Assembly: GCA_023140385.1 (NCBI GenBank)
Contig: JAGLLT010000015.1
Location: 1-56,803 of the forward strand
Direction of reading: 5' to 3'
From: Candidatus Omnitrophota bacterium
GTDB taxonomy: Bacteria > Omnitrophota > Gorgyraeia > JAGLLT01
DNA: 56,803 bases
The notes under the pieces were generated by a model, which searched no databases, was not told the origin of the DNA, and saw only the letters and a list, made by a program, of their open reading frames with translations. Within the stretch, counting starts at the first letter, position 1. Every line of letters starts with the position of its first letter. Both the position numbers and the translations under genes were made by a program. Positions 1-20,603 of this stretch are shown here, in pieces.

Positions 1-939
1 TCTGAAACTAAGATCTCTTATTCCGCGCTGGGAGGGCTTAGGTTACTTAATGAGGAAGAGTCTATAAAATTATATAGGGATACTATCAGCTCAGTGAAGG
101 ATGTCTATGATAAGGCGGAGACTGATCAAGAGGTGGCCGCGGAGAGTGAAAATATTACTATTCATGTGGAGAAACTTGTTAATCAGCAATGTCTGGGCAA
201 TAACAATATCTTAAATCTTATAAATTTACCCACGGACAGCGACTTTATTTATACCCATGTTGTAAATGTATGTATTTTATCTGTCGAGATAGGCCTTGGT
301 TTGGAATATGACAAAGCTCAATTAGTTGAATTAGGTACTATAGCTGTTGTGCATGATATAGGAATGGTGAAATTTCGGGATTTGTATAAACTTCCCCGCA
401 AGTTAAGCGAACATGAATACAAAAGAATAAAACGTCATCCGGAAATTGGCGCTGAAATCTTAGAGAAGTTTAAGGGGATATATAAAAAAGCTATCTCTGT
501 TGTCTATCAGGAGCATGAGCGCGTAGACGGTTCAGGTTACCCTCGTGGTTTAAGGAACGGCGCTATAAATGAATATACAAAGATAATTGGAGTGGCGGAT
601 GTTTATGAAGCTTTGACCCATTCGCGACCTCATCGCGTTAAAAATTACGCGCCCGAATCCCTGAAGCAAATTATCAATATGAAGAATTCTTTTGAAAAGA
701 AAATACTTAAGGTTTTGCTGGAGAGGATTGGTTGTCCGTTTAGCTTCGGCACTTATGTCAAGTTAAATTCGAGAGAAAAAGGGAAGATTGTTAAGAGAAA
801 TATAAAGTTTCCATTTAGGCCGATAGTTGAGATAACTTATGATTCTAACGGACAGATGCGGGAAAAGACTAAAACAATTGACCTGACCAAATGTCCGGCT
901 CTTTACATCGCGGGTTTTTTGAAAAGTGAAGAGATATAA
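1..939 (+). CDS. HD-GYP domain protein (putative c-di-GMP phosphodiesterase/receptor); 5' end probably lies outside the window
   Basis: Motifs VHDIGM, HPEIGAEIL and HERVDGSGYPRGL (HD plus GYP signature). Frame 1 has no stop from nt 1 up to the listed GTG at 94, so the gene may continue upstream. Confidence 0.8.
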   Translation, partial: SETKISYSALGGLRLLNEEESIKLYRDTISSVKDVYDKAETDQEVAAESENITIHVEKLVNQQCLGNNNILNLINLPTDSDFIYTHVVNVCILSVEIGLGLEYDKAQLVELGTIAVVHDIGMVKFRDLYKLPRKLSEHEYKRIKRHPEIGAEILEKFKGIYKKAISVVYQEHERVDGSGYPRGLRNGAINEYTKIIGVADVYEALTHSRPHRVKNYAPESLKQIINMKNSFEKKILKVLLERIGCPFSFGTYVKLNSREKGKIVKRNIKFPFRPIVEITYDSNGQMREKTKTIDLTKCPALYIAGFLKSEEI

Positions 940-974
940 GAGACAACTACCTAAAAAAACATTGAGAGATTAGT

Positions 975-1292
975 ATGAAAAAAAATAGCAGGATAGAAAA
1001 CGTGAATTATTTAAAAAGGCGCTATCAGAAGAACCCTGACATAGTTTTTCGGAAGATTGCCGAGGAGTATATATTAGTTCCTATTCGGCAAAGGATGGGG
1101 GATTTGGAGAGTATTTATGTCTTAACTGAAGTATCCGCAAGGATTTGGGAACTTATTGATGGAGAAAGAGAAGTTGGGGAAATAGGAGATAAAATTATAG
1201 AAGAGTTTGAAGTAATTCCCGAAAAGGCGGAAAAAGACTTAAATGAATTCCTGCAAAAATTAGAAAAGATAGAGGGAATTAAACTTACCTAA
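975..1292 (+). CDS. PqqD-family protein (RiPP recognition element / peptide chaperone)
   Basis: 105 aa. Typical PqqD pattern: P-DIVFRKI-EEYILV ... LTEVSARIWELIDGEREVGEI ... EF-V-PEKAEKDL-EFL-KL. A radical SAM/SPASM gene starts 14 nt downstream. Confidence 0.8.
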   Translation: MKKNSRIENVNYLKRRYQKNPDIVFRKIAEEYILVPIRQRMGDLESIYVLTEVSARIWELIDGEREVGEIGDKIIEEFEVIPEKAEKDLNEFLQKLEKIEGIKLT

Positions 1293-1305
1293 AAGCAGAA
1301 TTTCT

Positions 1306-2385
1306 ATGAACTGTCAGCATATACCAATAATTCCTTACCACAAATTTAGTGAACGTATTCATAATAAAGCGGTATCTGTGAGAATTCCTTTGGGGGGAAC
1401 CGTAGAGCCGACATTACGATGTAATCTGAAATGCGCTCACTGTTACGTTGCCTATGACCACAAGAAAAAGGAGATGACTTATAAAGAAATCTGTCATATT
1501 TTAGATGAAATTACTAACGCCGGCTGTCTTTGGTTATTAATTACCGGAGGCGAACCTCTTCTACGGGATGATTTTTTGGATATTTATACTTACGCTAAAA
1601 AGAAAGGGCTGATTATTACCCTATTTACAAACGGAACTTTAGTTACTTCCCAAATTGCCGATTATCTTAGAGACTGGCCGCCTTTTGTTGTAGAAATAAC
1701 TCTCTACGGTATGACAAAAGAAACTTATGAAAAAGTTACCGGAGTCAGGGGATCCTTTGAACGCTGTATAAAAGGGATAAAGCTGCTTTTAGAGAGAAAA
1801 ATACCTTTGAAACTTAAAACAATGGTTACAATCATCAATCAGCATGAGCTTTGGGATATTAAAAAATACGCGCAAGATTTAGGTGTCCAATTCCACTTTG
1901 ATTCCGCTCTAAATCCCCGATTGGATGGCTCCAAGGCGCCGTGCAAGCTAAGAATTTCACCTGAAAAGGTAATTGAATTTGATTTAGCGGACGCCGAGCG
2001 GCTTAAGGTGTGGAAGGAATTCTGCCGTAAATTTTGGGGTCCGGTAAAATCGGATAAACTTTATATTTGCGGCGCCGGCCGTACTTCATTTCATATTGAT
2101 CCTTATGGCGGGTTAAGTATTTGTATGATGTCGAGGGATCCCAGTTATAATCTTCGCCGGGGCTCATTTCAGGAAGGCTGGTATGATTTTATAGGTAAGT
2201 TTCGGGAGCAGAAACCAAAAACAGATTATAAATGCCGAAAGTGCGATTTATCGTTTCTGTGCGGCTTATGTCCCGCCTGGGCTAAGCTTGAAAACGGTGA
2301 CCCTGAAAGCCCGGTAGATTACCTTTGCCGAATTGCTCATCTTCGAGCTGAGGCCTTTGGCCCTAAAAAGAAGTTGTTAGTTTAA
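1306..2385 (+). CDS. Radical SAM / SPASM-domain peptide-modifying enzyme
   Basis: CxxxCxxC at aa 39-46 (CNLKCAHC). GGEPLL glycine-rich motif. C-terminal Cys-rich region CGAGRTSFHIDPYGGLSIC and CRKCDLSFLCGLCPAW, typical of SPASM auxiliary Fe-S clusters. Confidence 0.85.
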   Translation: MNCQHIPIIPYHKFSERIHNKAVSVRIPLGGTVEPTLRCNLKCAHCYVAYDHKKKEMTYKEICHILDEITNAGCLWLLITGGEPLLRDDFLDIYTYAKKKGLIITLFTNGTLVTSQIADYLRDWPPFVVEITLYGMTKETYEKVTGVRGSFERCIKGIKLLLERKIPLKLKTMVTIINQHELWDIKKYAQDLGVQFHFDSALNPRLDGSKAPCKLRISPEKVIEFDLADAERLKVWKEFCRKFWGPVKSDKLYICGAGRTSFHIDPYGGLSICMMSRDPSYNLRRGSFQEGWYDFIGKFREQKPKTDYKCRKCDLSFLCGLCPAWAKLENGDPESPVDYLCRIAHLRAEAFGPKKKLLV

Positions 2386-2409
2386 GATAAAATTAGGAGG
2401 AGGATAATA

Positions 2410-2571
2410 ATGGCGGAAAGAAAGCGTTATAATAAGCCGGAGATTAAACAGGTAAAACTTATGCCGGAAGAAGCAGTAATAGCCGCGTGTAAAGCAGCTG
2501 CTGTCGGAGCCAGCAAGAATGGTACCGGCTGTACAAACCCGAGCAATCACTGTGTTGACGGGGGATCGTAG
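2410..2571 (+). CDS. Candidate RiPP precursor peptide, 53 aa (MAERKRYNKPEIKQVKLMPEEAVIAACKAAAVGASKNGTGCTNPSNHCVDGGS); absent from the ORF track because it is under 60 aa
   Basis: My own translation. ATG at 2410 is preceded by AGGAGGAGGA at 2395-2404; stop TAG at 2569-2571. It starts 24 nt after the rSAM gene. The N-terminal aromatic-x-K-P-x-hydrophobic motif (YNKPEIKQVKL) resembles PqqA-type leaders. Three Cys (27, 41, 48) sit in a Gly/Ala/Ser/Asn-rich C-terminal half, and the last residue is Ser. Confidence 0.6.
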   Translation: MAERKRYNKPEIKQVKLMPEEAVIAACKAAAVGASKNGTGCTNPSNHCVDGGS

Positions 2572-2649
2572 GCCTTAAAAAGTGATCCGGCAGTGTTAGC
2601 CGGCTAAGTTGTTATGGCTATGCAAAGATAAACGGTTAAGGAGAGATAA

Positions 2650-3483
2650 TTGGAGCAATTAAAAATAACCGTCGGAGATATTACTATTTCTGTCAGGCTT
2701 CATGATTCCGGTTTTAGATTTGAGCCGAATGATGTCTACCGGCCCTTTTCTTCCGACAATGACCCTGATGTGCTTCTTCGTGTTTGCCGCGGCCGGTTTT
2801 CTAAGCGAAGGTTGAAGGAAAAACTTTTTGACGCGGGGACCACCTGGAGCATGTTCGGGGAGAACGGTAGATATGTCTTAGATAATAGCTACCAATCGAT
2901 TGCTTTAGAATCTGATTTTAAATCAGGTACAATTTACAATAAAGCGGTTATAGGAGAACAAGCGGCGCCATTTCCCTTAACTTATCCGTTGGACGAGATT
3001 CTGGTGGTAAACCTGTTGGGCAGAGGGCGGGGGATGATGGTTCATTCCTGTGGAATTAGTGACAAAGGCCGGGGGTTACTTTTTGCGGGAAGTTCACAGT
3101 CCGGCAAAAGTACTATGGCTAACTTGTGGAAAAAAGAAAAAGATACAGCCGCGTTGAGCGATGATAGAATTATCGTTCGTAAGATGAAGAAGAAATTTTG
3201 GATATACGGTACTCCCTGGCATGGAGATGCTAAAGTATGCTTAAAAGAGAAGGCGCCTTTAGAAAAAATTTTCTTCCTCAAGCATACAAAAAATAACATT
3301 ATAAAAAAAGTAGGCCCGGCCGATGCCGTCTCCCGCTTAATAATTTGTTCCTTTCTCCCTTTCTGGGATAAAAAAGGTATGGAGTTTACCTTGAAGTTCT
3401 GCGCTGAATTAGTCGAGAATGTTCCCTGTTATGAACTGGGTTTTGTTCCGGATGAGCATGTGTTGGATTTTGTGAGAGGTTAG
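2650..3483 (+). CDS. HPr kinase-related (HprK C-terminal-like) serine kinase
   Basis: VHSCGISDKGRGLLFAGSSQSGKSTMA matches the HprK-like H-x-s-x-V ... G-x-SG-x-GKST P-loop region seen in lasso-cluster and HPr-rel kinases. TTG start. Confidence 0.7.
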   Translation: MEQLKITVGDITISVRLHDSGFRFEPNDVYRPFSSDNDPDVLLRVCRGRFSKRRLKEKLFDAGTTWSMFGENGRYVLDNSYQSIALESDFKSGTIYNKAVIGEQAAPFPLTYPLDEILVVNLLGRGRGMMVHSCGISDKGRGLLFAGSSQSGKSTMANLWKKEKDTAALSDDRIIVRKMKKKFWIYGTPWHGDAKVCLKEKAPLEKIFFLKHTKNNIIKKVGPADAVSRLIICSFLPFWDKKGMEFTLKFCAELVENVPCYELGFVPDEHVLDFVRG

Positions 3484-3484
3484 T

Positions 3485-3964
3485 TTGCGAAAACAGAGAG
3501 TAGATTCACTAAATTTGAGCAGGCAGATACTTAAAGGGGGAAACAGTGTCCGTATTCCGGTTGTAGGAAGCAGTATGTACCCCCTTTTTAAAAAAGGGGA
3601 TTTCATCTTTATCGAACCCGTGGATATAAAGCACGTTTCAGTTGGTGATATTATCGTTTGCCGGCGAGGCAGGAGGATGGCTGCTCACCGCTTGATAAAA
3701 ATATGCCGCGATAGCGGGAGAAAGATATTAGTAACCAAAGGAGACACCTTTTCTGAATTTGATGAACCGGTTTACTCTGAAAATGTATTGGGTAGAATAA
3801 CAGCTATTGAAAGGAGGGGCCGGCATATAAGTATTAACAGGGGTTTATACGGCGTGATAAACATTTTTTGCGCTAAACTCTCACCTTTTAGCAAGTGGAT
3901 TTATCCCCCCTTGCGAAGGATTAAATGCGGGATAAATAAGATAAAGAACAGATATGCAGTCTGA
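3485..3964 (+). CDS. S24/S26-family serine peptidase (SipW/Sec11-like, S26B type) without an N-terminal membrane anchor
   Basis: GSSMYP (Ser nucleophile box), GDIIV, AHRLIK and TKGDTFSEFDEPV line up with the SGSMEP / GDVI / THRI / TKGDNN..D boxes of SipW-type signal peptidases. The N-terminus is hydrophilic. It starts 1 nt after the kinase stop. Confidence 0.65.
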   Translation: MRKQRVDSLNLSRQILKGGNSVRIPVVGSSMYPLFKKGDFIFIEPVDIKHVSVGDIIVCRRGRRMAAHRLIKICRDSGRKILVTKGDTFSEFDEPVYSENVLGRITAIERRGRHISINRGLYGVINIFCAKLSPFSKWIYPPLRRIKCGINKIKNRYAV

Positions 3965-5225
3965 AGACCTGCTGGTGTGTTATCTTGCAAGAGTAAATAT
4001 TGATAAGGACGCTGTTAGAAAGGTCAAGAAAATTCTAAGTCCAGAGTTAAACTGGGCTTATTTTTTTGATTTAGTAAAGAGTGAAGGCGTTACGCCCCTG
4101 GCCTATAAGAGTTTATCCGGAATTGACCAGGCTAAGGCCATAGTTCCCAAAGACATCTGGAAGAAGATGGAAAATTGCTATTATTCCGTTGCCGCTTCTA
4201 ATACTTTACTCTATCAAAAGTTGACAGGTATCTTAACCTCTTTTAATGAAACCGGTGTTAAGGTTATTGTTCTAAAGGGGGCGGCTTTGGCCGCTTCTAT
4301 CTATGGCAACGCGGCCTTAAGGGCAATGACAGATATAGACCTGTTGGTTAAAAAAGAGGAGCTGCCTTTTGTCGATACCGGATTGAAATGTCTTGGTTAT
4401 TCATCTGCCGACCGTTCAGTAGAGGATATTGATATCAGTTCAGTTTCATACCTCACCACCCTTGATTACAGAAACCCAGCCAAAAACTCTCCACCTTTAC
4501 ATATTCATTATCATTTTGTCAACTCAACCATTCCCACCCATTCTTATATCGATAAGATAAAGATAGAAAAAATCTGGCAGGAGGCGGAAGAAACGGAGAT
4601 TGGGGGTGTAAAAACTTTAGTAATGTCTCCCCATCATCTCCTTATTCACCTTGCCGAACATTCTCTGAGGGTACTTCATTCGTTGAATAAACTTTCCTAC
4701 CTTTGCGATATAAATGAAACAGTTAATTTTTATGGGGAGCGGCTTGATTGGAGTAAACTTGTTAGCCATAGTTTTGAGTTTAACCTTAATCGCCTGGTCT
4801 ATTTTAGCCTCTATTTTACAGCCAAATTTTTAAATACGGCTATACCGCAAAAGGTTTTGTCCGCTCTAAAACCTTCAAGGCTCAGTTGGGAAGAAAAAAT
4901 TTTTGTAAAGCTGGCTGCCGAAAATAAACGTTTTCCAGGATTGAGCTACCTTCTTCATTTAGCAATGAATGAGGGATTATGGGCAAAAGCAAGATTTATT
5001 TTAAGGACATTTTTTCCTCCCCGGCATATTTTAGCCCAGAGATATTATATTCCGGAATCAAAATTGAACTGTTTTCATTATCTTTACCGTATGGGGGAGA
5101 TACTTTCTCGCGGCTGTAAAGGCATTTGTTTTCTTATAGGATGGTTTTTTGAGAAATTAATACTGCGCCAGGCTTCCCTGCTGGCGCGCTTTTTTAAGCG
5201 CAAATTTAAAGGAAGTAAAGCTTAA
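3954..5225 (+). CDS. Nucleotidyltransferase-family protein (PF14907 / NTP_transf_5-like)
   Basis: VKVIVLKGAALAASIYGNAALRAMTDIDLLVKKEEL ... LGY matches the signature region of the 'uncharacterised nucleotidyltransferase' family found next to HprK-like kinases. It overlaps the upstream gene by 11 nt. Confidence 0.65.
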   Translation: MQSEDLLVCYLARVNIDKDAVRKVKKILSPELNWAYFFDLVKSEGVTPLAYKSLSGIDQAKAIVPKDIWKKMENCYYSVAASNTLLYQKLTGILTSFNETGVKVIVLKGAALAASIYGNAALRAMTDIDLLVKKEELPFVDTGLKCLGYSSADRSVEDIDISSVSYLTTLDYRNPAKNSPPLHIHYHFVNSTIPTHSYIDKIKIEKIWQEAEETEIGGVKTLVMSPHHLLIHLAEHSLRVLHSLNKLSYLCDINETVNFYGERLDWSKLVSHSFEFNLNRLVYFSLYFTAKFLNTAIPQKVLSALKPSRLSWEEKIFVKLAAENKRFPGLSYLLHLAMNEGLWAKARFILRTFFPPRHILAQRYYIPESKLNCFHYLYRMGEILSRGCKGICFLIGWFFEKLILRQASLLARFFKRKFKGSKA

Positions 5226-5963
5226 GGGAAGAAGCAGGAAAGAAAATAAGAGCAGAAAACCTATTTCTTTTGTAAGCTGGCCTAAACCAAAACCCCTATA
5301 GACCGCCAATTCTATCGCCCTAACAGCATAAGTGATGGGAAGAAATTTCGCCGCGAATTGTAACCAGGCGGGCATAATAGTTATGGGAAAATAAACCCCG
5401 CCAATTAAACCCTCCAGGCTATTTATGAGCCAGCCCACAGGATTACCGCGCTTAAACACCATAATGAAGCTTGCCGAAAGTATTCCTAAGCCGCTAAAAG
5501 AGATAATGGTTAAAAATAGTATTACTAAAGTAGACAGTATGTTTATATTAGAAAAGTTAATTTTAAACAAAAATATACCTAAACTAATGTAAATAGCTAT
5601 ATCCAATGTGGCGAAGAGCAAATTCCACAAGGCCATAGAAAACAATATGGTTGATATCCTGGTAGGAGTTAAGAGTATAGTTTCTAAGGTTCCCTGCATC
5701 TGTTCAGAACGAATGCGGCTGGAAAAAGAGCCTAAGCCCACCCCTACATAACTAAAGAAGGCCATACTCAGAAGCACATAAGAGAAGTAGTTTACGCCAA
5801 ATTCTTCTAAGTGCCCGACTATTTTCTGGCCGAACAGCTTATCAATAAAAAAATAAGTCAAGACGCTTACTAATACTCCAGCAATGTTGAACAAAAAAGA
5901 TAACTTATAACTGGATTCAATTAGAAAATCCTTTTTTATGAAAGCCAGTGGTTTTTTAAGCAT
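5157..5963 (-). CDS. ABC-2 type transporter permease
   Basis: 268 aa with about 6 predicted hydrophobic helices. It sits 3 nt downstream of the ABC ATPase on the same strand. Confidence 0.8.
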   Translation of the reverse strand: MLKKPLAFIKKDFLIESSYKLSFLFNIAGVLVSVLTYFFIDKLFGQKIVGHLEEFGVNYFSYVLLSMAFFSYVGVGLGSFSSRIRSEQMQGTLETILLTPTRISTILFSMALWNLLFATLDIAIYISLGIFLFKINFSNINILSTLVILFLTIISFSGLGILSASFIMVFKRGNPVGWLINSLEGLIGGVYFPITIMPAWLQFAAKFLPITYAVRAIELAVYRGFGLGQLTKEIGFLLLFSFLLLPLSFTSFKFALKKARQQGSLAQY

Positions 5964-5966
5964 ATT

Positions 5967-6752
5967 TTAAGGCCCCTCAGTCAATTTTACGAAAATTTCA
6001 CCCAAGCCGGCAGTAGAATCATTTATCTTTTGCCGCAACTCCTCCAGTGTCCCCATGCCATAAATTTTTCCTTTATGTAATATCATAAATAAGTTGCAGA
6101 AATCCAAGGCCTCGTCTATATGATGAGTGGTGAAAATAACCGTTTTTTCTTTTTTTTTAATCAAATTTTCTTTTATGAACTTTCTTAAGTTTAAAGCGGC
6201 CGCGTAATCCAGGCTTTTGGTTGGCTCATCTAAAAGAAGAAGTTCGGGATTATTGAGCAGGCCTCTTATAAGCGCGAATTTCTGTTTCATTCCGGTAGAG
6301 TAAGAATCAAATCGTCTGTCCGCGTAGTCTATCTCGAAAAAATTGAGCAATTTTTTAATTTTGTCTTTTATATTTTTTAAATTATACATAGCCGCGAAAA
6401 ATTCAAGATTTTGTCTTCCGGTAAGGCGCCAGTAAAAACTTCTTTCCTGAGAGGAGACCATGCCGATAAAAGATTTAATTTTATCATCATCAATACCGAG
6501 GCGATATCCATTTACCGTTACACTGCCTTTGTCCGGGAGTATTAAGGTGGCGATTATCTTTAGGAGGGTGGTTTTTCCGGCGCCATTGGGCCCAAGAATA
6601 CCCAGCGTGCCTCCCCTTTTAAGAGAAAATGAAACTTCTTCAAGCGCCCTTATCGGCCTTTGGTGCGTAAAATCGAGTTTGATTAATTTAGTGAAAGAGA
6701 GAGGGGGTATAAAATCTTTGGTTAATTTATTTATTTCTAATATATATTTCAT
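5967..6752 (-). CDS. ABC transporter ATP-binding protein
   Basis: Walker A GPNGAGKTT, signature YSTGMKQK, Walker B LLLLDEP, H-loop TTHH. Confidence 0.9.
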   Translation of the reverse strand: MKYILEINKLTKDFIPPLSFTKLIKLDFTHQRPIRALEEVSFSLKRGGTLGILGPNGAGKTTLLKIIATLILPDKGSVTVNGYRLGIDDDKIKSFIGMVSSQERSFYWRLTGRQNLEFFAAMYNLKNIKDKIKKLLNFFEIDYADRRFDSYSTGMKQKFALIRGLLNNPELLLLDEPTKSLDYAAALNLRKFIKENLIKKKEKTVIFTTHHIDEALDFCNLFMILHKGKIYGMGTLEELRQKINDSTAGLGEIFVKLTEGP

Positions 6753-6855
6753 TTAGTTACCTGTTTGTAACTATTTAGTCTACCAGAAAAAATATTACGG
6801 GTCAAGTTTTTCCAAATTCTTAAACTGTGTGAATCTTTGAAAAAAAGAGGCGGCC

Positions 6856-6883
6856 TTGACAAATTTGTATTATATGGTATACT
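6856..6883 (+). promoter_or_regulatory. Sigma70-like promoter candidate for the HTH/ExeA/export operon
   Basis: TTGACA at 6856-6861, a 16-nt spacer, then extended -10 TGgTATACT with TATACT at 6878-6883. Confidence 0.4.
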
Positions 6884-6898
6884 TAAAACAGTTACTTA

Positions 6899-6920
6899 AC
6901 TTAAAGTATATGCTTTAAGT
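6899..6920. promoter_or_regulatory. Perfect 8-bp inverted repeat (ACTTAAAG-N6-CTTTAAGT), possible operator
   Basis: Read directly from the sequence. It lies about 16 nt downstream of the -10 candidate and 63 nt upstream of the MerR-like HTH gene. Confidence 0.3.
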
Positions 6921-6982
6921 ACTTATTTATCTAATGTATTCAATTTTAAATTAATCACAGCGAGAAGTGTATTATTAAGTAT

Positions 6983-7210
6983 ATGCGGAAAAATATGATT
7001 TCAATAAAAGAGATTGTGAAAAAATATAACCTTCCTGCCTCTACCGTTAACCACTATACAAATGTTGGATTGTTAAATATCGCGGACAGAAAGAAAAACA
7101 CAAGATTGTATGATGAAGCAGAGGTTAGAAATAGGTTGAAAAGAATATCGGAGTTGAGGTGCAAGGGTTACCCCTTGCACCTGATTCGTAAGGAATTAAA
7201 AGAGGTTTAA
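6983..7210 (+). CDS. Small MerR-family helix-turn-helix protein (75 aa, DNA-binding domain only)
   Basis: ISIKEIVKKYNLPASTVNHYTNVGLL ... RLYDEAEV ... L-RI-ELR-KGYPL-LI follows the MerR N-terminal HTH pattern. Confidence 0.6.
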   Translation: MRKNMISIKEIVKKYNLPASTVNHYTNVGLLNIADRKKNTRLYDEAEVRNRLKRISELRCKGYPLHLIRKELKEV

Positions 7211-7226
7211 TTGATTTGGAGACAAT

Positions 7227-8042
7227 ATGTACGAGGAATATTGGGGCTTTAAAGAGAAGCCATTTCAGAATACACCCGATCCGCGTTTTTTCTATAAATC
7301 CGCTGAACATGAAGATGCCTTGATGAAAATGCTTTATGTGGTTGAAGAGGGATTGGGAGGAGGAGTGCTTACAGGTGTATTTGGCTGTGGGAAAACGGTT
7401 GTTAGTCAGGCCCTTTTGGAGAAACTTCCCAGTGATAAGTATAAAATAGCAGTTATTACCAATCCCCAACTTGAATATGTAGACCTTCTCAGAGCTATTG
7501 TACGTAATTTAAAAAGTGTGAAACTGCCTGTTAAAAAAACCGAACTTTCCGCGGATTCTTTGTTAGAAATTTTGGGAAATATATTGGAAAACAATGATAG
7601 AGATGGAAGAGAGACGGTAATTGTTATTGATGAAGCTCATATCATAAGGGACGAAAGTATATTTGAAGCACTGCGACTTTTATTGAATTTCCAAAAGAAA
7701 GATAAATTTTTATTAACGTTACTTCTTTTTGGCCAGCCGGAATTGAAACAGAGAATTGAGGATAATAAACAGTTAGAGCAAAGGATTGCTGTAAAAAGCC
7801 ACTTAGAAGCTTTTGGCCAGCAAGATACCCGCAATTATATAATCCATCGGCTTCGTGTAGTTCAAGGAGCGGATACTGTCTTTGACGAAAACGTTTTTGA
7901 GATAATTCATAATCGTTCCGGCGGCATTCCCAGGAGGATAAATCGAATTTGTGACTTAAGTCTTTTAATAGGATCGAGTAAGGACGCAAAGAGCATTGAT
8001 GAAGAGACGGTAGAAGAAAGTCTGCAAACGTTGAAGGACTAA
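7227..8042 (+). CDS. ExeA/GspA-like AAA ATPase (PEP-CTERM-locus secretion ATPase type), copy 1
   Basis: PF-NTPDPRFFY N-terminal motif, Walker A GVFGCGKT, Walker B VIVIDEAH, GQPEL, GGIPRRIN. It is collinear with the 271-aa paralog at 40716-41531. Confidence 0.8.
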   Translation: MYEEYWGFKEKPFQNTPDPRFFYKSAEHEDALMKMLYVVEEGLGGGVLTGVFGCGKTVVSQALLEKLPSDKYKIAVITNPQLEYVDLLRAIVRNLKSVKLPVKKTELSADSLLEILGNILENNDRDGRETVIVIDEAHIIRDESIFEALRLLLNFQKKDKFLLTLLLFGQPELKQRIEDNKQLEQRIAVKSHLEAFGQQDTRNYIIHRLRVVQGADTVFDENVFEIIHNRSGGIPRRINRICDLSLLIGSSKDAKSIDEETVEESLQTLKD

Positions 8043-8064
8043 TCCGGTTTTTATTGGAATTATA

Positions 8065-10008
8065 ATGAAAAAACATGATATAATAGAGGAAAAAATGGGT
8101 GATTCACGAAAATATATGATTAGATTTATCGCGGTTATAGTATCTTTAATAACCTTGTTTTGTCCTATTATTGAGGCGCAGGCGGGGAGTATTTTTGATT
8201 TCTTCCGCCGAGATAAAGAAAAAGCGTCCGGGAAGGAAAGGCGGAAGGAAGAAGTTCTTTCTCTGCCTCAGGCTTATATAGTAAAGGAAGAAGTTCTTTC
8301 TCTGCCCCGGGTTTATATAGTAAAAGAAGGAGATTCACTTTCAACAATAGCAAGGAGATTTTATGGAGAGGTATCTAACTGGACTCTAATCTATGAGGCA
8401 AATAAGGATAAGATAAATGACCCCAACAGAATAGAACGGGGCATTGAGTTAACTATTCCAGCCCCGGAAACGGAAGAAGTGGAAGCTTTTCGGATTGAAC
8501 TTCTTTATCAGCAAGCTAAAGAAAATTTTGTCCAAGAAGAATACCCCGCCGCTATAGTAAAATTTGCTGAAGTAATTGAACTGGAAAAAGGCCTTTATCA
8601 TATCTACACAGCCTCCGCCCGGGAATATATCCTGCAGGCCGGGGATGAAATTAAGGAGCGCGAAGCAAGAGAGGCGCGGGCGCAAAGGCAAGCTGAAGAA
8701 AAGCGAAAGAGAGAACAAGAGGAGTTTGTCAAAAGAGCGGAAGAGGAAAGGCTAAGAAGAGAGGTTGAAAAAAGAAAAAAATTAGCTCAAGCGGAGTTGG
8801 CATATAAAGAAGCGGAAGAAAGCTTTTTGGAAGCCAAGGCTAAATTTGAAAAGGCCGCGGACTTAGAGAAAGAGGCTAAAGATGATGCCCGAGCCTCCCA
8901 AGTAAAAGCTTATTATCAGCAAGCTAAAGAAAATTTTGTCCAAGAAGAATACCCCGCCGCTATAGTAAAATTCGCTGAAGTCATTGAACTGGAAAAAGGC
9001 CTTTATCATATTTACACAGCCTCCGCCCGGGAATATATCCGGCAGGCCCGGGAGGAAATTAAGGAGCGCGAAGCAAGAGAGGCGCGGGCGCAAAGGCAAG
9101 CTGAAGAAAAGCGAAAGAGAGAACAAGAGGAGTTTGTCAAAAGAGCGGAAGAGGAAAGGTTAAGAAGAGAGGTTGAAAAAAGAAAAAAATTAGCTCAAGC
9201 GGAGTTGGCATATAAAGAAGCGGAAGAAAGTTTTTTGGAAGCCAAAGCTAAATTTGAAAAGGCCGCGGACTTAGAGAAAGACATAGAGGCCGCTTCCGCG
9301 GCAAAGGTTGTTGAGGAGCGCGGAGATTACTTGGCTCGAAAAGGAGAGAAGGCGCAATTAAACTTAAGCCCTAAGAGTAAATCGAAAGATAAAGAGGCCA
9401 TAGTAAACAATAAAATAGAAACTCCCGGGGTTTTTGAGTACACCATTGGAGAGGGAGATACATTATACGTGTGTATTTGGCAAGAGGAAAATCTAAACCG
9501 GGAAGTAATTGTTCGGCCCGACGGGAAAATATCTTTTTCTTTAGCTGGAGATGTGCCGGCGGCCGGATTGACCTTTGACCAGTTAAAAGAGGAGCTTACT
9601 CAAAGACTCAAAGAGTACATTAAATACCCCGTAGTCTCTTTGTCTCTTAAGCAGTTGGGCGGGAAAAAGGTTATTATTTTAGGAGAAGTAGGAAGCCCCG
9701 GAGTTTATTCTGTTACAGGTAAGAGTACTGTATTGGAGGCAATTAGTAAGGCGGGCGGTTTTACGCCGGATGCTGTTTCTGCCAGCACCATACTTATTAA
9801 AGGGGGATTGCAAAATCCTCAAGGCATCAGACTTAATTTAAAGCGTGCCGTTACTAAAGCTGATATGAGTCAAAATGTCATTTTGCAATCAGAAGATATT
9901 ATCTATGTGCCTAAAAAATTTATAGCCAATCTCAACTACACCTTATCTCAGATTCTCGGCCCTATTACTCAGGGCGCCGGCGCTTCTAGAAATTTACAGG
10001 ATTGGTAA
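8065..10008 (+). CDS. Polysaccharide export protein (Wza/Poly_export + SLBB-like C-terminus) with an N-terminal LysM domain and a duplicated charged coiled-coil region
   Basis: Signal/anchor segment FIAVIVSLITLFCPIIEA. LysM-like YIVKEGDSLSTIARRFYG...WTLIYEANKDKINDPNRIERGIELTIP. C-terminal YTIGEGDTLYVCIW...RPDGKISFSLAGDVPAAGLTFDQLKEEL and ILGEVGSPGVYSV, typical of Poly_export/SLBB. Confidence 0.8.
   Translation: MKKHDIIEEKMGDSRKYMIRFIAVIVSLITLFCPIIEAQAGSIFDFFRRDKEKASGKERRKEEVLSLPQAYIVKEEVLSLPRVYIVKEGDSLSTIARRFYGEVSNWTLIYEANKDKINDPNRIERGIELTIPAPETEEVEAFRIELLYQQAKENFVQEEYPAAIVKFAEVIELEKGLYHIYTASAREYILQAGDEIKEREAREARAQRQAEEKRKREQEEFVKRAEEERLRREVEKRKKLAQAELAYKEAEESFLEAKAKFEKAADLEKEAKDDARASQVKAYYQQAKENFVQEEYPAAIVKFAEVIELEKGLYHIYTASAREYIRQAREEIKEREAREARAQRQAEEKRKREQEEFVKRAEEERLRREVEKRKKLAQAELAYKEAEESFLEAKAKFEKAADLEKDIEAASAAKVVEERGDYLARKGEKAQLNLSPKSKSKDKEAIVNNKIETPGVFEYTIGEGDTLYVCIWQEENLNREVIVRPDGKISFSLAGDVPAAGLTFDQLKEELTQRLKEYIKYPVVSLSLKQLGGKKVIILGEVGSPGVYSVTGKSTVLEAISKAGGFTPDAVSASTILIKGGLQNPQGIRLNLKRAVTKADMSQNVILQSEDIIYVPKKFIANLNYTLSQILGPITQGAGASRNLQDW
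8248..8325 (+). repeat. Tandem 39-nt (13-aa) in-frame duplication inside the export gene
   Basis: GAAGAAGTTCTTTCTCTGCC... occurs at 8248 and again at 8287, encoding EEVLSLPQAYIVK / EEVLSLPRVYIVK. Confidence 0.85.
8506..9281 (+). repeat. Near-identical direct duplication: two 368-nt units at 8506-8873 and 8914-9281, offset 408 nt (136 codons), in frame inside the export gene
   Basis: Aligned by eye, with about nine substitutions between the copies. Both encode YQQAKENFVQEEYPAAIVKFAEVIELEKGLYHIYTASAREYI...EKRKKLAQAELAYKEAEESFLEAKAKFEKAADLEK. Confidence 0.9.
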
Positions 10009-10029
10009 GGTTAAGAAAAGGAGATACTT

Positions 10030-11982
10030 TTGCCGGAATATGAATTAAATTTAAGAGATTATTTAAGAATTTTCCATAAGAGGAAATTCCTTATAGTTAC
10101 AACGTTTCTTGTTATAACCATAGGTAATATATTTTATCTTTCCATGCAGCCGTCTGTATATAAAGCCTCCACTACTGTTAAAATATTGGAGCGTCAAAGT
10201 ATAGCAGGTTTACTTACTGAATGGATTGTTTATAGCCCGGCGGATATAATGGAATCTCAAGCTAAAATAATAAATGGGTATCCTATTATGAAGAGGGTGG
10301 CCTTGCGCCTTAGCTTAATAGATGATAGCACCCCTATTCAAGAAGTTTATAACGTGGTGGCAAATTTACAGAGCAGGATAACCGCTGAGACAATTGAACG
10401 GACAAACATTATTGAAATTACCGCCTCCGCGGGCAATGCTAAAGAAGCTATGAATTTAGCTAACGCGGTTGCTCATCTTTATGTAGAAGAAAATTTATCA
10501 GAGAAAAAAAAGCAAGCCGGCGCCGCGCGCCAATTTATTGAGGAGCAATTATCTCAGTTAGAAGTAAGGTTAAGAGAAGGAGAGGCGCATCTGAGGGGCT
10601 TAGATGAAGGAGCAAAGAATGTTAAGCTGGCTGAACCCATTCAGAAAAAATTGATAGACTTAGAGTTTGAGCTGACTTCCCTTTTACAAAAATATACCGA
10701 TAAACATCCTTACGTAATGCGGCTTAATGAACAGATTAAGAATTTGGAAGAACATCTGAAAGGATTTTCCGGTCAGGAATTGGAATATGCCAGATTTATT
10801 CGCGAGGGTGAAGTTAACAAAAAACTCTATGGCATACTTAAAGAAAAACTTGAAGAGGCGCGTATTACCGAAGCCAGGAAGATAGGCGATGTTTCTATAG
10901 TTGACCCGGCGTTTATGCCCCGTTCTCCTGTATCTCCGCAGAAAGAATTAGGCGCGCTTATAGGCGGAGTGGTGGCGCTGGTGTTAGGTATTTTCCTTGC
11001 TTTTTTATCTGAATCTTTAGATGCTTCTATTGGGACCATAGAGGACGTAGAAAAAGAGGTTAAACTTCCTGTTTTAGGAATTATCCCTTCTGTTTCGCGC
11101 GAACTTAAGAAAGAAGAAAAAATTTTTACAAAATTTATGAGGAAAATTTCACCCCTTACAAAAAAAGATGACAATGAAGAGATTTATGTACGTTTAATTG
11201 TTCATCATGAACCTAAATCTCCCGTAGCTGACGCTTACCGTAATATTCGTACCAATCTTAGGCTTAATCCATCCCAAAAAACCATTCTTGTTACAAGCGC
11301 CGCGCCCCGTGAAGGCAAGACCACAACTCTGACAAATTTGGGTTTAGCTATAGCTCAAAAAGGGATAAAAACGCTCCTGGTTTCTTCTGACCTGAGGCGG
11401 CCGGTATTGGCAAAAAGTTTTGGTATGCAGAAAGAACCCGGGCTAAATGAAGTTGTATCCGGCGCGGTAACATTGGAAGATGCTATCAGGGGCATTTCAG
11501 ATATTATGCTGGGAGATATGGGGTTTGAAGAAATAATGAAATCCCCTGGAATTGAAAATATATATATTCTTCCCTCCGGATATATACCTTCTAATCCCGC
11601 GGAAATCTTAGAGTCCGCGGAGTTTGCGAAAATAGTAGAAGAACTTAAAAAGAAATTTGATGTTATCATCTTTGATTCTCCTCCCGTACTCCCTGTAACT
11701 GATGCCAGTTTATTGGCTTCTAAAGTGGACAGTGTTGTTTTGTGTTATGAGATTGGCAGGACCGCCAGAGCCGCTCTTGTACGGGCCAAAACTCAGTTAG
11801 AGTCGGTAGGCGCTAAAATTTCAGGGGTGGTATTAAATCACATCACGCCCCAGACTGAGGCAATGGCGCCCTACCCTTATTATTACAGATACAAATATAG
11901 ATATGATACGGAGGAAAAGAAGGCAGGGAAGAAACTTAAAACCGGCAAGGGAAAAGAATCGCCCCAGGAAGATAGAGTATAG
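10030..11982 (+). CDS. Chain-length determinant (Wzz) fused to a BY-type tyrosine autokinase (Wzc/EpsB-like)
   Basis: N-terminal TM plus a Wzz-like region with coiled coil and a second TM (LIGGVVALVLGIFLAFL). Walker A SAAPREGKTTT, Walker A' LLVSSDLRRP, Walker B VIIFDSPP. C-terminal Tyr cluster YPYYYRYKYRY at nt 11872-11904. Confidence 0.85.
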   Translation: MPEYELNLRDYLRIFHKRKFLIVTTFLVITIGNIFYLSMQPSVYKASTTVKILERQSIAGLLTEWIVYSPADIMESQAKIINGYPIMKRVALRLSLIDDSTPIQEVYNVVANLQSRITAETIERTNIIEITASAGNAKEAMNLANAVAHLYVEENLSEKKKQAGAARQFIEEQLSQLEVRLREGEAHLRGLDEGAKNVKLAEPIQKKLIDLEFELTSLLQKYTDKHPYVMRLNEQIKNLEEHLKGFSGQELEYARFIREGEVNKKLYGILKEKLEEARITEARKIGDVSIVDPAFMPRSPVSPQKELGALIGGVVALVLGIFLAFLSESLDASIGTIEDVEKEVKLPVLGIIPSVSRELKKEEKIFTKFMRKISPLTKKDDNEEIYVRLIVHHEPKSPVADAYRNIRTNLRLNPSQKTILVTSAAPREGKTTTLTNLGLAIAQKGIKTLLVSSDLRRPVLAKSFGMQKEPGLNEVVSGAVTLEDAIRGISDIMLGDMGFEEIMKSPGIENIYILPSGYIPSNPAEILESAEFAKIVEELKKKFDVIIFDSPPVLPVTDASLLASKVDSVVLCYEIGRTARAALVRAKTQLESVGAKISGVVLNHITPQTEAMAPYPYYYRYKYRYDTEEKKAGKKLKTGKGKESPQEDRV

Positions 11983-19675: not shown

Positions 19676-19683
19676 AGGACGCT

Positions 19684-20529: not shown

Positions 20530-20603
20530 ATAGCCGTGAAAGATATTTCAGTTACACTAATTGAAGTTATGCGGTTTCACAAAGAGGTTAAAAAACAGTG
20601 CGG

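Follow-up and report, generated by a model that had tools for sequence, protein, structure and literature searches.

A conserved, probable peptide-maturation cassette with a predicted ScmC-family peptide kinase in an Omnitrophota exopolysaccharide locus

In natural-product biosynthesis peptides are rarely phosphorylated, and the characterised HprK-like peptide kinases come only from lasso clusters of Bacillota and Proteobacteria and, since May 2026, from the linear polyphosphorylated peptide (LPP) clusters of Bacillota. In lasso pathways, HprK-like kinases target the linear precursor and place a phosphate on its C-terminal Ser, to which PsmN attaches a hexose (PMC8498205). A contig of a Candidatus Omnitrophota bacterium encodes a P-loop protein and a PF14907 nucleotidyltransferase (NTase) that a first-pass annotation had described as a lasso-type tailoring pair without lasso core machinery, perhaps recruited to another peptide scaffold. 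To which system do these proteins belong, and on what do they act? Here, we describe a computational analysis of the whole 56,803-nucleotide stretch of DNA (the window) and of related loci in other genomes. The relevant genes are as follows.

94..939, plus strand: HD_5 (HD-GYP-like) domain protein (Pfam HD_5, 1.6e-20), whose gene opens the plus-strand run
975..1292, plus strand: PqqD-family RiPP recognition element (RRE), 105 aa (Pfam PqqD, 3.3e-15)
1306..2385, plus strand: radical SAM/SPASM peptide maturase, 359 aa (Pfam Radical_SAM, 1.1e-22, and a weak SPASM match)
2410..2571, plus strand: precursor peptide, 53 aa, MAERKRYNKPEIKQVKLMPEEAVIAACKAAAVGASKNGTGCTNPSNHCVDGGS (assigned from synteny and conserved residues)
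2650..3483, plus strand: ScmC-family (PF27840) P-loop protein of PEPCK/HprK fold, 277 aa, predicted peptide Ser/Thr kinase
3485..3964, plus strand: archaeal/SipW-type signal peptidase I-like protein (S24/S26), 159 aa, predicted leader peptidase
3954..5225, plus strand: PF14907 (NTP_transf_5) nucleotidyltransferase, 423 aa (Pfam, 1.4e-44)
5157..5963, minus strand: ABC-2 type permease, DrrB-like (Pfam ABC2_membrane, 8.8e-17)
5967..6752, minus strand: ABC transporter ATPase, DrrA-like, predicted export or immunity (NCBIfam drrA, 5e-57; Pfam ABC_tran, 4.4e-29)
7227..8042, plus strand: XrtA/PEP-CTERM-system-associated AAA ATPase (TIGR03015, 8.4e-62, under cut-off)
8065..10008: Wza-like gene of the exopolysaccharide (EPS) export/biosynthesis locus
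10030..11982: Wzc-like gene of the same locus

The permease gene is convergent with the NTase gene and overlaps its 3' end by 69 nt. The EPS locus that begins at 7227 contains pepcterm_export, chain-length determinant and tyrosine autokinase matches, and the genes checked between 12 and 36 kb are sugar, lipid-carrier and glycosyltransferase genes. This large PEP-CTERM-type EPS locus surrounds the cassette.

The earlier statement that lasso cyclase and B2 protease are missing is borne out by tblastn across the whole 56.8-kb window. A genuine lasso B2 query (L092 12841-13347, an NF033537 match of 94 bits) gave a best E of 7, and a genuine lasso cyclase found only 32436-34319. The latter had been singled out as an AsnB homologue with an intact glutaminase nucleophile among sugar genes, and so it is: its N-terminus reads MCGICGI, sugar-type genes surround it, and its best matches are the XrtA/PEP-CTERM amidotransferase TIGR03108 (1e-180) and, above cut-off, glutamine-hydrolysing Asn synthase. 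It is a PEP-CTERM-type glutamine-hydrolysing amidotransferase 27 kb off. The resemblance to lasso loci such as those of paeninodin (PadeK) and pseudomycoidin (PsmK/PsmN) (L092, L173-L176) lies in an HprK-superfamily kinase and a PF14907 NTase beside a PqqD RRE, and in a precursor that ends in Ser (9 of 9 precursors adjoining lasso-type kinases in the reference loci). In contrast to these clusters, the window has neither an Asn-synthetase-like cyclase nor a transglutaminase-like B2 (NF033537/PF13471), its NTase shares 19% identity with a lasso-cluster NTase (E 7e-12), and its peptide has a YxxP leader motif where these Bacillota lasso loci have WxxP.

The two genes do carry the four motifs by which they had been recognised, exactly where these had been placed. 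In ORF 2650-3483, which has a TTG start and AAGGAGAG ahead of the start codon, VHSCGIS occupies aa 131-137 (nt 3040-3060) and the P-loop GSSQSGKST aa 147-155 (nt 3088-3114), followed by LSDDRIIV at aa 169-176 (nt 3154-3177). In ORF 3954-5225, VLKGAALA is found at aa 106-113 (nt 4269-4292) and MTDIDLLV at aa 125-132 (nt 4326-4349), with G109 and D127xD129 falling within nt 4269-4349. Profile searches with a Pfam set that did not include PF27840 gave no Pfam match for the P-loop protein, and its NCBIfam matches, HprK_rel_B (3e-7) and ScmC (7e-6), are both far under cut-off. The PF27840 'ScmC' label, taken as precomputed rather than rescored against the model, is carried by the protein's own cluster and by all 120 homologues listed; it is also carried, together with PF07475, by the lasso kinases, and PF27840 is therefore a broad family. 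Depending on the threshold, the broader kinase-like family comprises between 1,718 and 13,910 sequence clusters. Similarity to PDB sequences is slight (E 0.14 over 54 residues), and an AlphaFold model (AF2, pLDDT 88.8) of the ScmC-type protein gives Foldseek matches to PEP carboxykinases (E 4e-7) and to the HPr kinase/phosphorylases 1ko7 and 1knx (E 5e-5 to 2e-4). Like HprK/P, the protein has a PEPCK-like P-loop catalytic domain with a GxxGxGKS/T Walker A motif and a downstream DD pair; unlike HprK/P, it has a different N-terminal domain and lies outside any PTS or HPr context. As judged from the predicted structure, the term 'HprK-like' is right at the level of fold and superfamily only. Two candidate assignments were rejected: HPr kinase/phosphorylase, with no TIGR00679, PF07475 or Pfam Hpr_kinase_C match at E <= 0.01 and a likeness of the C-terminal domain at fold level only, and the HPr-rel-A system (TIGR04352, TIGR04355), with HprK_rel_B at 29.7 bits against a cut-off of 200 and no HprK_rel_A match.

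An alignment of ScmC homologues shows H132, G152, K153, D171, D172 and R173 to be invariant, and the P-loop Lys153-Ser154-Thr155, His132 and Asp171-Asp172 are all invariant or nearly so. These residues (H132, K153-S154-T155, D171-D172) align with the invariant H115, K136-S137-T138 and D153-D154 of the lasso kinases. BLASTP against the lasso kinases aligns only 75 residues around the P-loop, and hhalign extends the match between window-type and lasso kinases over the whole catalytic domain (97.5%, E 5e-12, 171 columns). To judge by these comparisons, the window protein is a remote homologue of the lasso kinases and nothing closer. In the kinase tree one branch splits all cassette-type from all lasso-type sequences in 200 of 200 bootstraps. 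A kinase phylogeny had been proposed as a check on the first interpretation; the window clade falls outside both the true HPr kinases and any family tied to non-peptide substrates, and it adjoins a conserved peptide gene in 36 of 38 well-flanked loci.

That peptide is encoded directly ahead of the kinase gene. The 53-mer, with the Shine-Dalgarno sequence GGAGGAGG 7 nt ahead of its ATG, has a YxxPxI leader motif, an EEAV(I/L)xxCK box, three Cys and a C-terminal Ser (codon 2566-2568), and no Pfam or NCBIfam family model matches it. A homologous small ORF lies directly upstream of the kinase gene in 65 of 71 loci, and Y7, P10, L17, C27 and K28 are invariant in the family alignment. All 149 sequences recovered in two scans (71 + 78 distinct homologues) end in Ser or Thr, with Thr as the last residue in 4 of the 71 genome-derived peptides. 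Ser and Thr are frequent immediately after the CK box, and the peptide alignment contains no invariant internal Ser/Thr column. The C-terminal Ser/Thr is kept in cassettes that lack the radical SAM gene (L038, L062, L082) and in 26 loci without an NTase gene, leaving ScmC as the sole constant enzymatic partner of these peptides. Five peptide copies have no adjacent kinase gene and look like orphan extra copies.

Relatives occur in at least 199 GTDB species genomes; the best 80 of these are all MAGs and span at least eight non-Bacillota phyla. The recurrent order, PqqD, radical SAM/SPASM, a peptide of ~50 aa, ScmC, SipW-like (S24) peptidase, in some loci the NTase and sometimes an ABC-2 exporter, is found in MAGs of WOR-3, Omnitrophota, Aminicenantes, Nitrospirota, Desulfobacterota, Chloroflexota, Acidobacteriota and Planctomycetota. 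Among the 38 loci whose flanks extend 6 kb or more on both sides of the kinase gene, the peptide is present near it in 36, PqqD in 33, the radical SAM gene in 30, S24 in 28 and the NTase in 19. An independent scan anchored on the peptide found the ScmC gene adjacent in 57 of 62 loci. The NTase is encoded in 20 of 46 related loci, and the radical SAM gene is sometimes missing, as in the minimal cassettes L038, L062 and L082; in minimal four-gene cassettes (PqqD-peptide-ScmC-NTase), a scan of the neighbouring genes showed none for EPS. EPS export/biosynthesis homologues accompany 14 of 35 related loci of at least 18 kb, and the same convergent ABC-2 pair follows the cassette in L001, L004, L006, L008, L013, L015 and L024. 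No Asn-synthetase-like gene was found within ~10 kb in any of 87 related loci. The kinase-like gene and the peptide are the constant pair and the NTase an optional part of a conserved, so far uncharacterised peptide-maturation cassette of many uncultured bacterial phyla.

These results divide the original interpretation. The proposal that the pair stands outside the lasso pathway and apparently serves another ribosomal peptide, the 53-mer, stands; a lasso-type origin and a 'recruited' module are not supported. With ~19% identity to the lasso kinases, a separate clade in 200 of 200 bootstraps and no Asn-synthetase-like gene in the 87 loci, the label 'lasso-type tailoring pair' is misleading, and the view of the kinase as a tailoring extra fails on its constant presence. 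On the reading proposed below, the kinase would be the class-defining core enzyme of the cassette rather than a lasso-derived accessory.

The PqqD protein has weak NCBIfam matches to ScmD, lasso PqqD and GeoRSP PqqD, all under cut-off. The best full-length NCBIfam alignment of the radical SAM/SPASM protein is to the mycofactocin maturase (1e-34, under cut-off). MftC works on the C-terminus of its precursor, and because of this full-length likeness the C-terminal Ser could serve the radical SAM enzyme where one is present. The S24/S26 protein scores above the cut-off for TIGR02228 sigpep_I_arch (67.4 bits against 51.85), with further matches to SipW (8e-9) and Pfam Peptidase_S24 (3e-6). It contains GSSMYP (nt 3566-3583), the probable nucleophile motif, and, to the eye, its 159 residues include no apparent N-terminal membrane anchor; in L001 the peptidase is fused to GNAT and NTase domains. 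The NTase matches PF14907 at 153 bits against a cut-off of 31.2 (E 1.4e-44), its nearest relatives sit in the same type of cassette, and G109, Y117, R123, D127, D129, H236, H242 and D252 are invariant in cassette-linked and lasso-linked NTases. It probably decorates the phosphate that the kinase is predicted to place on the precursor.

We consider it reasonably probable that 975-6752 is one RiPP-like maturation cassette with the 53-mer at 2410-2571 as its substrate, in which kinase, NTase, radical SAM enzyme, peptidase and exporter act in turn. The PqqD protein would bind the leader through the invariant YxxPx(I/V/L). The ScmC-family enzyme would then phosphorylate the precursor with ATP, most likely on the side chain of Ser53, and the PF14907 NTase, where encoded, would place a further group, a sugar or a nucleotide-derived moiety, on the phosphate. 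The radical SAM/SPASM enzyme may alter the Cys-containing core, the cytoplasmic SipW-like signal peptidase may take off the leader, and the ABC-2 transporter may carry the product out. We infer all of these chemical steps, the phosphorylation site included. A peptide-kinase role for ScmC is suggested by its synteny with the peptide, the tracking of the terminal Ser/Thr, its fold and residues, the lasso and LPP precedents and the common EPS context; on these grounds it probably phosphorylates the precursor, with the C-terminal Ser as the most likely site. Counting against the proposal are the ~19% identity to characterised kinases, the Ser3 site of LppK, the peptides that end in Thr, the failure to detect an effect of LppN, the MftC-like radical SAM enzyme, the L091 pair in its non-RiPP-looking context and the five peptide copies with no kinase gene beside them.

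By gene content, the LPP system of Bacillota (LppA/K/B/S/D/N; Popov et al., Nat Commun 2026, PMC13381572) is the closest described relative. There, the linear peptide is polyphosphorylated by LppK at Ser3 of its core, not at its C-terminus; a Ser-to-Thr change abolished phosphorylation, and phosphorylation promotes leader cleavage by the SipW-like LppS, assisted by the RRE (PMC13381572). In a heterologous host, no effect of LppN on the peptide could be detected, and LPPs were described as restricted to Bacillota (PMC13381572). Both systems have a YxxPx(V/I/L) leader motif, lack a macrolactam cyclase and lie inside polysaccharide loci. Both also have an archaeal/SipW-type signal peptidase I (67.4 bits to TIGR02228 in the window; the enzyme type of LppS, PMC13381572) and a discrete RRE (975-1292), LppK/S/B/N being compared by description, not by sequence. 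The window's HprK-like kinase and NTP transferase are of enzyme types that may correspond to LppK and LppN. The SipW-like peptidase, PqqD protein and EPS context, which together match the LPP system (PMC13381572), had been overlooked by the first-pass annotation. The window differs in its additional radical SAM/SPASM enzyme, in a two-gene ABC-2 (DrrAB-like) exporter in place of an MsbA-like one, and in its hosts, which are non-Bacillota MAGs of Omnitrophota, Acidobacteriota, Desulfobacterota and other phyla. The precursors are unrelated beyond YxxPx(I/V/L): that of LPP reads YxxPxVLxHQxIxFETxxS with phospho-Ser3, and the remainder of the window precursor reads xxVxLxPEEAVLxxCK, with three Cys and the invariant C-terminal Ser. 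A Bacillota locus that is LPP-like by gene content (L088) supplies the nearest outgroup kinase (A1 HMM, 1.5e-25). The best reading of the window system is an LPP-like RiPP, a radical SAM-containing, non-Bacillota variant of the LPP logic. The SynChlorMet cassette (TIGR04248-TIGR04251) likewise combines a PqqD homologue, radical SAM/SPASM and a ScmC-type P-loop protein. Membership was rejected, with ScmC at 25.6 against 125 bits, ScmD at 36.4 against 100, and ScmE at 72.7 and ScmF at 79.9 against 400, all under cut-off. The window has one radical SAM enzyme, not two, and adds the peptidase, NTase and ABC-2 exporter. To our knowledge the TIGRFAM description of SynChlorMet identifies no precursor, whereas here the precursor family is evident.

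Other readings of the locus must be weighed against this scheme. The kinase might act on an internal Ser/Thr near the leader-core junction, leaving the C-terminal Ser to the radical SAM enzyme, to recognition by peptidase or exporter, or to NTase attachment. LppK, which uses core Ser3 and thereby promotes cleavage (PMC13381572), the mycofactocin-like alignment and the Ser/Thr common after the CK box all point this way; against a C-terminal Ser/Thr in 149 of 149 peptides, however, there is no invariant internal column, the terminal Ser persists without the radical SAM gene, and lasso kinases act on the C-terminal Ser (PMC8498205). We regard an internal site as unlikely, if still credible. That the ScmC-like protein is no protein kinase at all, but a scaffold or chaperone that binds ATP, a phosphorylase, or a kinase of small molecules that feeds an activated donor to the NTase or radical SAM enzyme, seems improbable: its best structural matches are indeed small-molecule enzymes, the PEP carboxykinases, and its family is annotated as a 'conserved hypothetical' cassette protein and nothing further, but its catalytic-domain homology reaches proven lasso peptide kinases, it retains the P-loop, the His ahead of it and the DD pair, and ScmC is encoded even where no NTase or radical SAM gene is near.

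The setting inside a large EPS locus, with EPS export genes near 14 of 35 related loci, could also mean that kinase and NTase modify an exopolysaccharide or lipid-linked sugar and lie near the peptide incidentally. Yet kinase gene and peptide are neighbours in over 90% of loci, with or without EPS genes nearby, minimal four-gene cassettes have none among the scanned neighbours, and a PqqD RRE, for which we know of no role in glycan chemistry, would have nothing to do there. Even with the carrier-protein, CYTH and luciferase-like genes beside the L091 pair and the failure to see peptide-directed LppN activity (PMC13381572) in its favour, this reading is very improbable. Decay of a lasso cluster through loss of cyclase and B2 would explain why kinase, NTase, PqqD and a YxxP leader all occur in paeninodin-type clusters, but it has next to no probability and is effectively refuted already: none of 87 related loci has an Asn-synthetase-like gene, the window has no B2, every ORF is intact, the arrangement is kept across at least 8 phyla, and the kinases form their own clade (200/200 bootstraps).

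Under the preferred reading, a kinase/RRE/SipW-peptidase/NTase logic now extends to at least 199 GTDB species genomes, the best 80 of which include at least eight phyla outside the described Bacillota range. New here is its union with a radical SAM enzyme and with a defined precursor family outside the Pfam and NCBIfam models; the 53-mer with its Ser53 offers a precise candidate substrate for the orphan ScmC (PF27840) and PF14907 families. The analysis also strengthens a connection, seen repeatedly and so far unexplained, of phosphorylated peptides with loci for exopolysaccharide or capsule. More speculatively, and on balance doubtfully, the cassette could represent an undescribed RiPP class widespread in uncultivated phyla (Omnitrophota, WOR-3, Acidobacteriota, Desulfobacterota, Nitrospirota, Chloroflexota, Planctomycetota), in which a class-defining PEPCK/HprK-fold kinase phosphorylates the invariant C-terminal Ser of a Cys-crosslinked peptide and PF14907, through this phospho-Ser, couples the peptide to a sugar or to the neighbouring EPS. 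One would then expect a matrix glycan capped or primed by the peptide, or a biofilm signal, and not an antibiotic.

Two further observations concern gene context. An HprK-like and PF14907 pair on a B. thuringiensis plasmid (L091) lies in a non-RiPP-looking context of carrier-protein, CYTH and luciferase-like genes. Ahead of the cassette, L013, L015, L016, L024 and L078 also encode an HD protein together with an ExeA-like ATPase; in L004 the two lie downstream of it.

Positions 94-5225 of the window carry seven closely spaced or overlapping ORFs on the + strand, and a convergent gene pair follows the nucleotidyltransferase (NTase):

94-939, + strand: HD_5 protein (ORF and family search)
975-1292, + strand: PqqD protein (ORF and family search)
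1306-2385, + strand: radical SAM (rSAM)/SPASM enzyme (ORF and family search)
2410-2571, + strand: 53-aa ORF, the peptide, with a strong Shine-Dalgarno sequence, GGAGGAGG
2650-3483, + strand: P-loop (ScmC-like) protein, precomputed Pfam label PF27840
3485-3964, + strand: S24/S26 peptidase, passing the TIGR02228 cut-off
3954-5225, + strand: PF14907 nucleotidyltransferase (Pfam, 1.4e-44)
5157-6752, convergent to the seven-ORF run: ABC-2 permease/ATPase pair

A promoter and terminator scan of window positions 1-7300 gave signals at chance level, so the operon structure is deduced from the short gaps between genes alone. The first-pass annotation had described the kinase and the NTase as a lasso-type tailoring pair without lasso machinery. 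The four motifs that it quoted lie in the kinase-like protein (residues 131-137 and 147-155) and in the NTase (residues 106-113 and 125-132), and its observation is confirmed. No lasso B2 protease is detectable across the whole 56.8-kb window, and the sole Asn-synthetase homologue (32436-34319), with MCGICGI at its start, belongs to the XrtA/PEP-CTERM amidotransferase type. The lack of lasso machinery is genuine.

In the local copy of Pfam the P-loop protein has no match, and in NCBIfam it has only weak ones, to HprK-related kinase B and ScmC; its precomputed Pfam label, PF27840, is named 'ScmC'. Searching PDB sequences with a profile of the kinase alignment returned marginal matches only (HprK, E 0.14, and generic P-loops), and since this search was not usable alone, a fold search was employed. 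The top matches of an alignment-based AlphaFold model (pLDDT 88.8, pTM 0.87) were ATP- and GTP-dependent PEP carboxykinases, over the whole length (E 4e-7), followed by 1ko7 and 1knx, both HPr kinase/phosphorylases (E 5e-5 to 2e-4). This P-loop fold is common to HprK/P and PEP carboxykinase. The 'HprK-like' label therefore holds only at the level of fold and superfamily. His132, Gly152-Lys153 and Asp171-Asp172-Arg173 do not vary among 26 homologues, and Ser154-Thr155 is almost constant. By profile, the family is large and comprises 13,910 clusters (defined at 50% identity) at E <= 1e-3 and 1,718 at E <= 1e-30.

The closest homologues of the kinase (47-58% identity) are found in metagenomes and metagenome-assembled genomes (MAGs) only. 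The window gene order (PqqD, rSAM, an ORF of ~53 aa, ScmC, S24 peptidase, PF14907 NTase and the convergent ABC-2 pair) recurs on long contigs of Omnitrophota and Aminicenantia as well as of a wastewater metagenome, where GNAT and NTase domains are in some cases joined to the peptidase. When one genome per GTDB species was scanned, 199 stretches encoding a relative were found. The best 80 of these are all from MAGs and belong to WOR-3, Omnitrophota, Aminicenantes, Nitrospirota, Desulfobacterota, Chloroflexota, Acidobacteriota, Planctomycetota, Armatimonadota and Patescibacteria.

The ORFs of 87 loci were searched with the window proteins and with HMMs built from their matches, and an Asn-synthetase-like gene was found in 0/87. 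Of 38 non-redundant loci whose flanks reach at least 6 kb on both sides, the peptide is present in 36, PqqD in 33, rSAM in 30, the S24 peptidase in 28, the NTase in 19 and the ABC ATPase in 11. When cassette types were counted in 46 loci flanked by at least 4 kb on each side, PqqD, rSAM, peptide and S24 peptidase occurred together without the NTase in 18 and with it in 12. Three others of the 46 (L038, L062 and L082) have a minimal PqqD-peptide-ScmC-NTase cassette without rSAM, peptidase or exporter, an arrangement that Pfam scans bear out at L038 and L062. From these partner counts, the kinase-like gene and the peptide are the constant pair of the cassette, and the NTase is optional (20/46). 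Individual loci carry other arrangements: locus L001 encodes, at 8852-10933, one 693-aa protein in which S24 peptidase, GNAT acetyltransferase and PF14907 NTase are fused, and in L006 a PRMT5/PrmA-like protein methyltransferase gene (2620-3837) is inserted between kinase and peptidase. An HD_5 (HD-GYP-like) protein and an ExeA/PEP-CTERM-type AAA ATPase adjoin the cassette repeatedly, in several phyla (window 94-939 and 7227-8042; loci L013, L015, L016, L024, L078 and L004), which hints at a regulatory link, possibly via c-di-GMP.

No Pfam or NCBIfam model matches the peptide family. Its consensus is (K/R)KxYxKPx(I/V)xx(V/I)xLxPEEAVLxxCK, followed by a variable stretch with two more Cys and then GS; columns Y7, P10, L17, C27 and K28 never vary. 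Discrete lasso and LPP (linear polyphosphorylated peptide) RREs bind the YxxPx(I/V/L) element (PMC13381572). Of the 71 distinct peptides from genome loci, 67 have Ser and four have Thr as the last residue; 56 end in Gly-Ser, 46 contain three Cys and 19 contain four. In an independent test, metagenome contigs were scanned by the peptide motif alone: all 78 distinct complete peptides end in Ser (78/78), and of the 62 loci whose flanks were long enough, 57 have an ScmC gene beside the peptide. In four of the five others, the precursor copy has no kinase gene in the flanking sequence of up to 5 kb on each side; the fifth, L169, is a contig of 1.4 kb and too short for a verdict. Cassettes that lack rSAM, and those that lack the NTase, keep the C-terminal Ser, and the ScmC-like protein is the one enzyme that always accompanies it.

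The orphan precursor copies, which have no adjoining kinase or maturase gene, lie at:

L104, 2380-2559
L132, 1800-1955
L137, 4899-5156
L095, 145-306

Those in L104, L132 and L137 adjoin very large repeat-rich surface proteins (DUF7948/SBBP beta-propeller, FG-GAP, LVIVD, and DUF11 with a C25 peptidase), a polysaccharide flippase or a sigma-54/PilZ regulator, the last being a sigma-54 activator with a PilZ domain beside the L137 copy. The ORF after the L095 copy has zero Pfam matches.

Reference loci were obtained by tblastn against plasmids. Locus L092, from Paenibacillus cellulosilyticus, is a complete paeninodin-type cluster with NTase, cyclase, precursor, kinase, B1, B2 (NF033537, 94 bits) and ABC exporter genes. 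Second kinase copies in Paenibacillus genomes were considered as examples of the LPP kinase LppK and rejected, as all four loci (L173-L176) are lasso clusters as well. BLASTP aligned the window and lasso kinases over 75 residues only (28%, E 2e-4); a profile-profile comparison of window-type and lasso kinases (97.5%, E 5e-12, 171 columns, 20% identity) spans the whole catalytic domain, with the His, P-loop and DD positions corresponding. Lasso kinases are labelled PF07475 and PF27840; the window type is labelled PF27840, a few members carrying PF07475 too. In a neighbor-joining tree, built on a low-identity alignment and not a maximum-likelihood phylogeny, the cassette-type kinases form one group, to which a Butyrivibrio kinase (L088) is attached, and the lasso-type kinases form another, with a Deinococcus kinase (L090) attached. 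The two types are ~19% identical, and the branch parting all cassette-type from all lasso-type kinases was recovered in 200/200 bootstraps. A strict 'cassette-only' clade is poorly supported (4/100), since the Butyrivibrio sequence falls inside it; with Butyrivibrio added, the cassette clade is recovered in 62/100, and the lasso clade is recovered in 69/100. The robust result of the tree is the separation of cassette and lasso kinases, the finer clades being only moderately supported. The low identity, the separate branch and the lack of Asn-synthetase-like neighbours do not bear out the proposal that a lasso tailoring module had been recruited. The kinase/NTase pair is no wandered lasso module; it belongs to a peptide cassette that centres on the kinase and is deep, separate and widespread. 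Ser is the last residue of the precursor beside lasso-type kinases in 9/9 cases, in agreement with the published phosphorylation of the linear precursor's C-terminal Ser by lasso-cluster kinases; PsmN puts a hexose on the phosphate (PMC8498205).

The window NTase is a clear PF14907 member. All its closest relatives belong to cassettes of this type; the best one with a name, at 72% identity, is from Candidatus Omnitrophota, which is accordingly the probable phylum of the window. It is 19% identical to a lasso-cluster NTase (E 7e-12), and G109, Y117, R123, D127, D129, H236, H242 and D252 are common to the cassette and lasso enzymes. A profile of 20 NTases found nothing among PDB sequences (best E 0.99), and a single-sequence AlphaFold model reached pLDDT 35, so the judgement on this enzyme draws only on PF14907 and on its G...DxD...H...H...D columns, which are conserved. 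A literature search for PF14907 found nothing related.

The nearest described relative of the cassette is the LPP system, reported from Bacillota and stated to be restricted to them (Popov et al., Nat Commun, May 2026; PMC13381572). Its conserved core comprises LppS, an archaeal/SipW-type signal peptidase I; LppB, a discrete RRE; LppK, an HprK-like kinase; LppN, an uncharacterised NTP transferase; and an exporter resembling MsbA. LPP clusters sit inside capsule loci. Ser3 of the core is polyphosphorylated by LppK, LppS requires the RRE and prefers the phosphorylated precursor when cutting off the leader, and deletion of lppN caused no detectable change (PMC13381572). The window cassette shares with this system the peptidase type (3485-3964 scores above the TIGR02228 cut-off), an RRE, apparently the kinase superfamily and the NTase type, the YxxP leader motif, the lack of a cyclase and a polysaccharide context. 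It differs in having an rSAM/SPASM enzyme, an exporter of ABC-2 rather than MsbA-like type, and an unrelated precursor family with an invariant C-terminal Ser and three Cys, and in occurring in non-Bacillota phyla. There is also a resemblance to NCBIfam's SynChlorMet cassette, itself uncharacterised, but the window scores far below the cut-off of each of its four families; literature searches for SynChlorMet, for HprK-related kinase and for HPr kinase with RRE found nothing.

The nearest outgroup is the kinase of L088, on Butyrivibrio fibrisolvens plasmid pNP243, which matches the kinase HMM at 1.5e-25, versus 3e-5 for a lasso kinase. At 8581-10604 this locus encodes the kinase, a Cys/Pro-rich 57-aa peptide (YxKPEL motif, ending ...YGRIW), PqqD and an S24 peptidase, with two NTases, GT2 and PssD/PssE nearby; it has no rSAM, and a cyclase is neither annotated nor detected. 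By gene content L088 looks LPP-like. Clusters of this kind in rumen Butyrivibrio have been reported as lasso clusters (PMC7533575) and look LPP-like instead. A regex for the LPP precursor motif found nothing relevant in L088-L092. Locus L089 has an NTase without a kinase. L091, on B. thuringiensis plasmid pST7-2, was rejected as a peptide cassette, having no PqqD, peptidase or obvious precursor; at 4584-11883 it encodes two HprK-like P-loop proteins and a PF14907 NTase beside a CYTH domain protein, a carrier (PP-binding) protein, a methyltransferase and a luciferase-like monooxygenase, a non-RiPP-looking context for this enzyme pair.

In the window, the cassette is followed by PEP-CTERM-type ATPase, Wza-like and Wzc-like genes and then by ~45 kb whose scanned genes all belong to the sugar, lipid-carrier or glycosyltransferase classes; exopolysaccharide (EPS) genes are nearby in 14/35 related loci. 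A glycan substrate for the kinase/NTase pair is less likely than the peptide. A non-kinase role for ScmC, whose model is matched by carboxykinases ahead of HPr kinases, is likewise less likely than precursor phosphorylation. We propose that the YxxP leader would be bound by the RRE and the precursor phosphorylated by the ScmC-like enzyme, most likely at Ser53, because this residue is invariant and co-occurs only with that enzyme, and because a C-terminal Ser is what the homologous lasso kinases target. Where present, the NTase may decorate the phosphate, after the PsmN precedent; the Cys-containing core would be modified by the rSAM/SPASM enzyme, the leader removed by the soluble SipW-like peptidase, as by LppS, and the product exported by the ABC-2 pair. 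The phosphorylation site is the main uncertainty of this pathway, since LppK targets an internal Ser and the rSAM enzyme aligns full-length with the mycofactocin maturase, which acts on the C-terminus of its precursor. Such a pathway would give two orphan enzyme families a defined substrate and extend phosphorylated linear RiPPs well beyond Bacillota; the cassette was partly anticipated by the PF27840/SynChlorMet annotations and the 2026 LPP paper.

Within the Wza-like gene (8065-10008), a 408-bp segment is tandemly duplicated in frame at 8505-9281 (1.9 copies, 97% identical). It encodes a coiled-coil/TPR-like part (YQQAKENFVQEEYPAAIVKFAEVIELEKGLYHIY...) of a LysM-containing polysaccharide export protein, and a 39-bp repeat (2.2 copies, 8245-8329) lies upstream of it. 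The duplication looks recent; an artefact of assembly could also explain it. Further along, three paralogous CDP-alcohol phosphatidyltransferase-like genes (17294-18349, 20598-21629 and 23558-24583), best matched by archaetidylinositol or phosphatidylinositol phosphate synthases, alternate with SAM methyltransferase genes (19642-20529, 22746-23504 and 24634-25455), and a decaprenyl-phosphate phosphoribosyltransferase-like gene lies at 29511-30389, an unusual content for an EPS locus. Directly upstream of the PEP-CTERM-type ATPase gene, positions 6983-7210 encode a 75-aa helix-turn-helix protein, MerR-like by eye, preceded at 6856-6883 by the best sigma-70-like promoter match (11/12) of a region in which the scan as a whole was at chance level.
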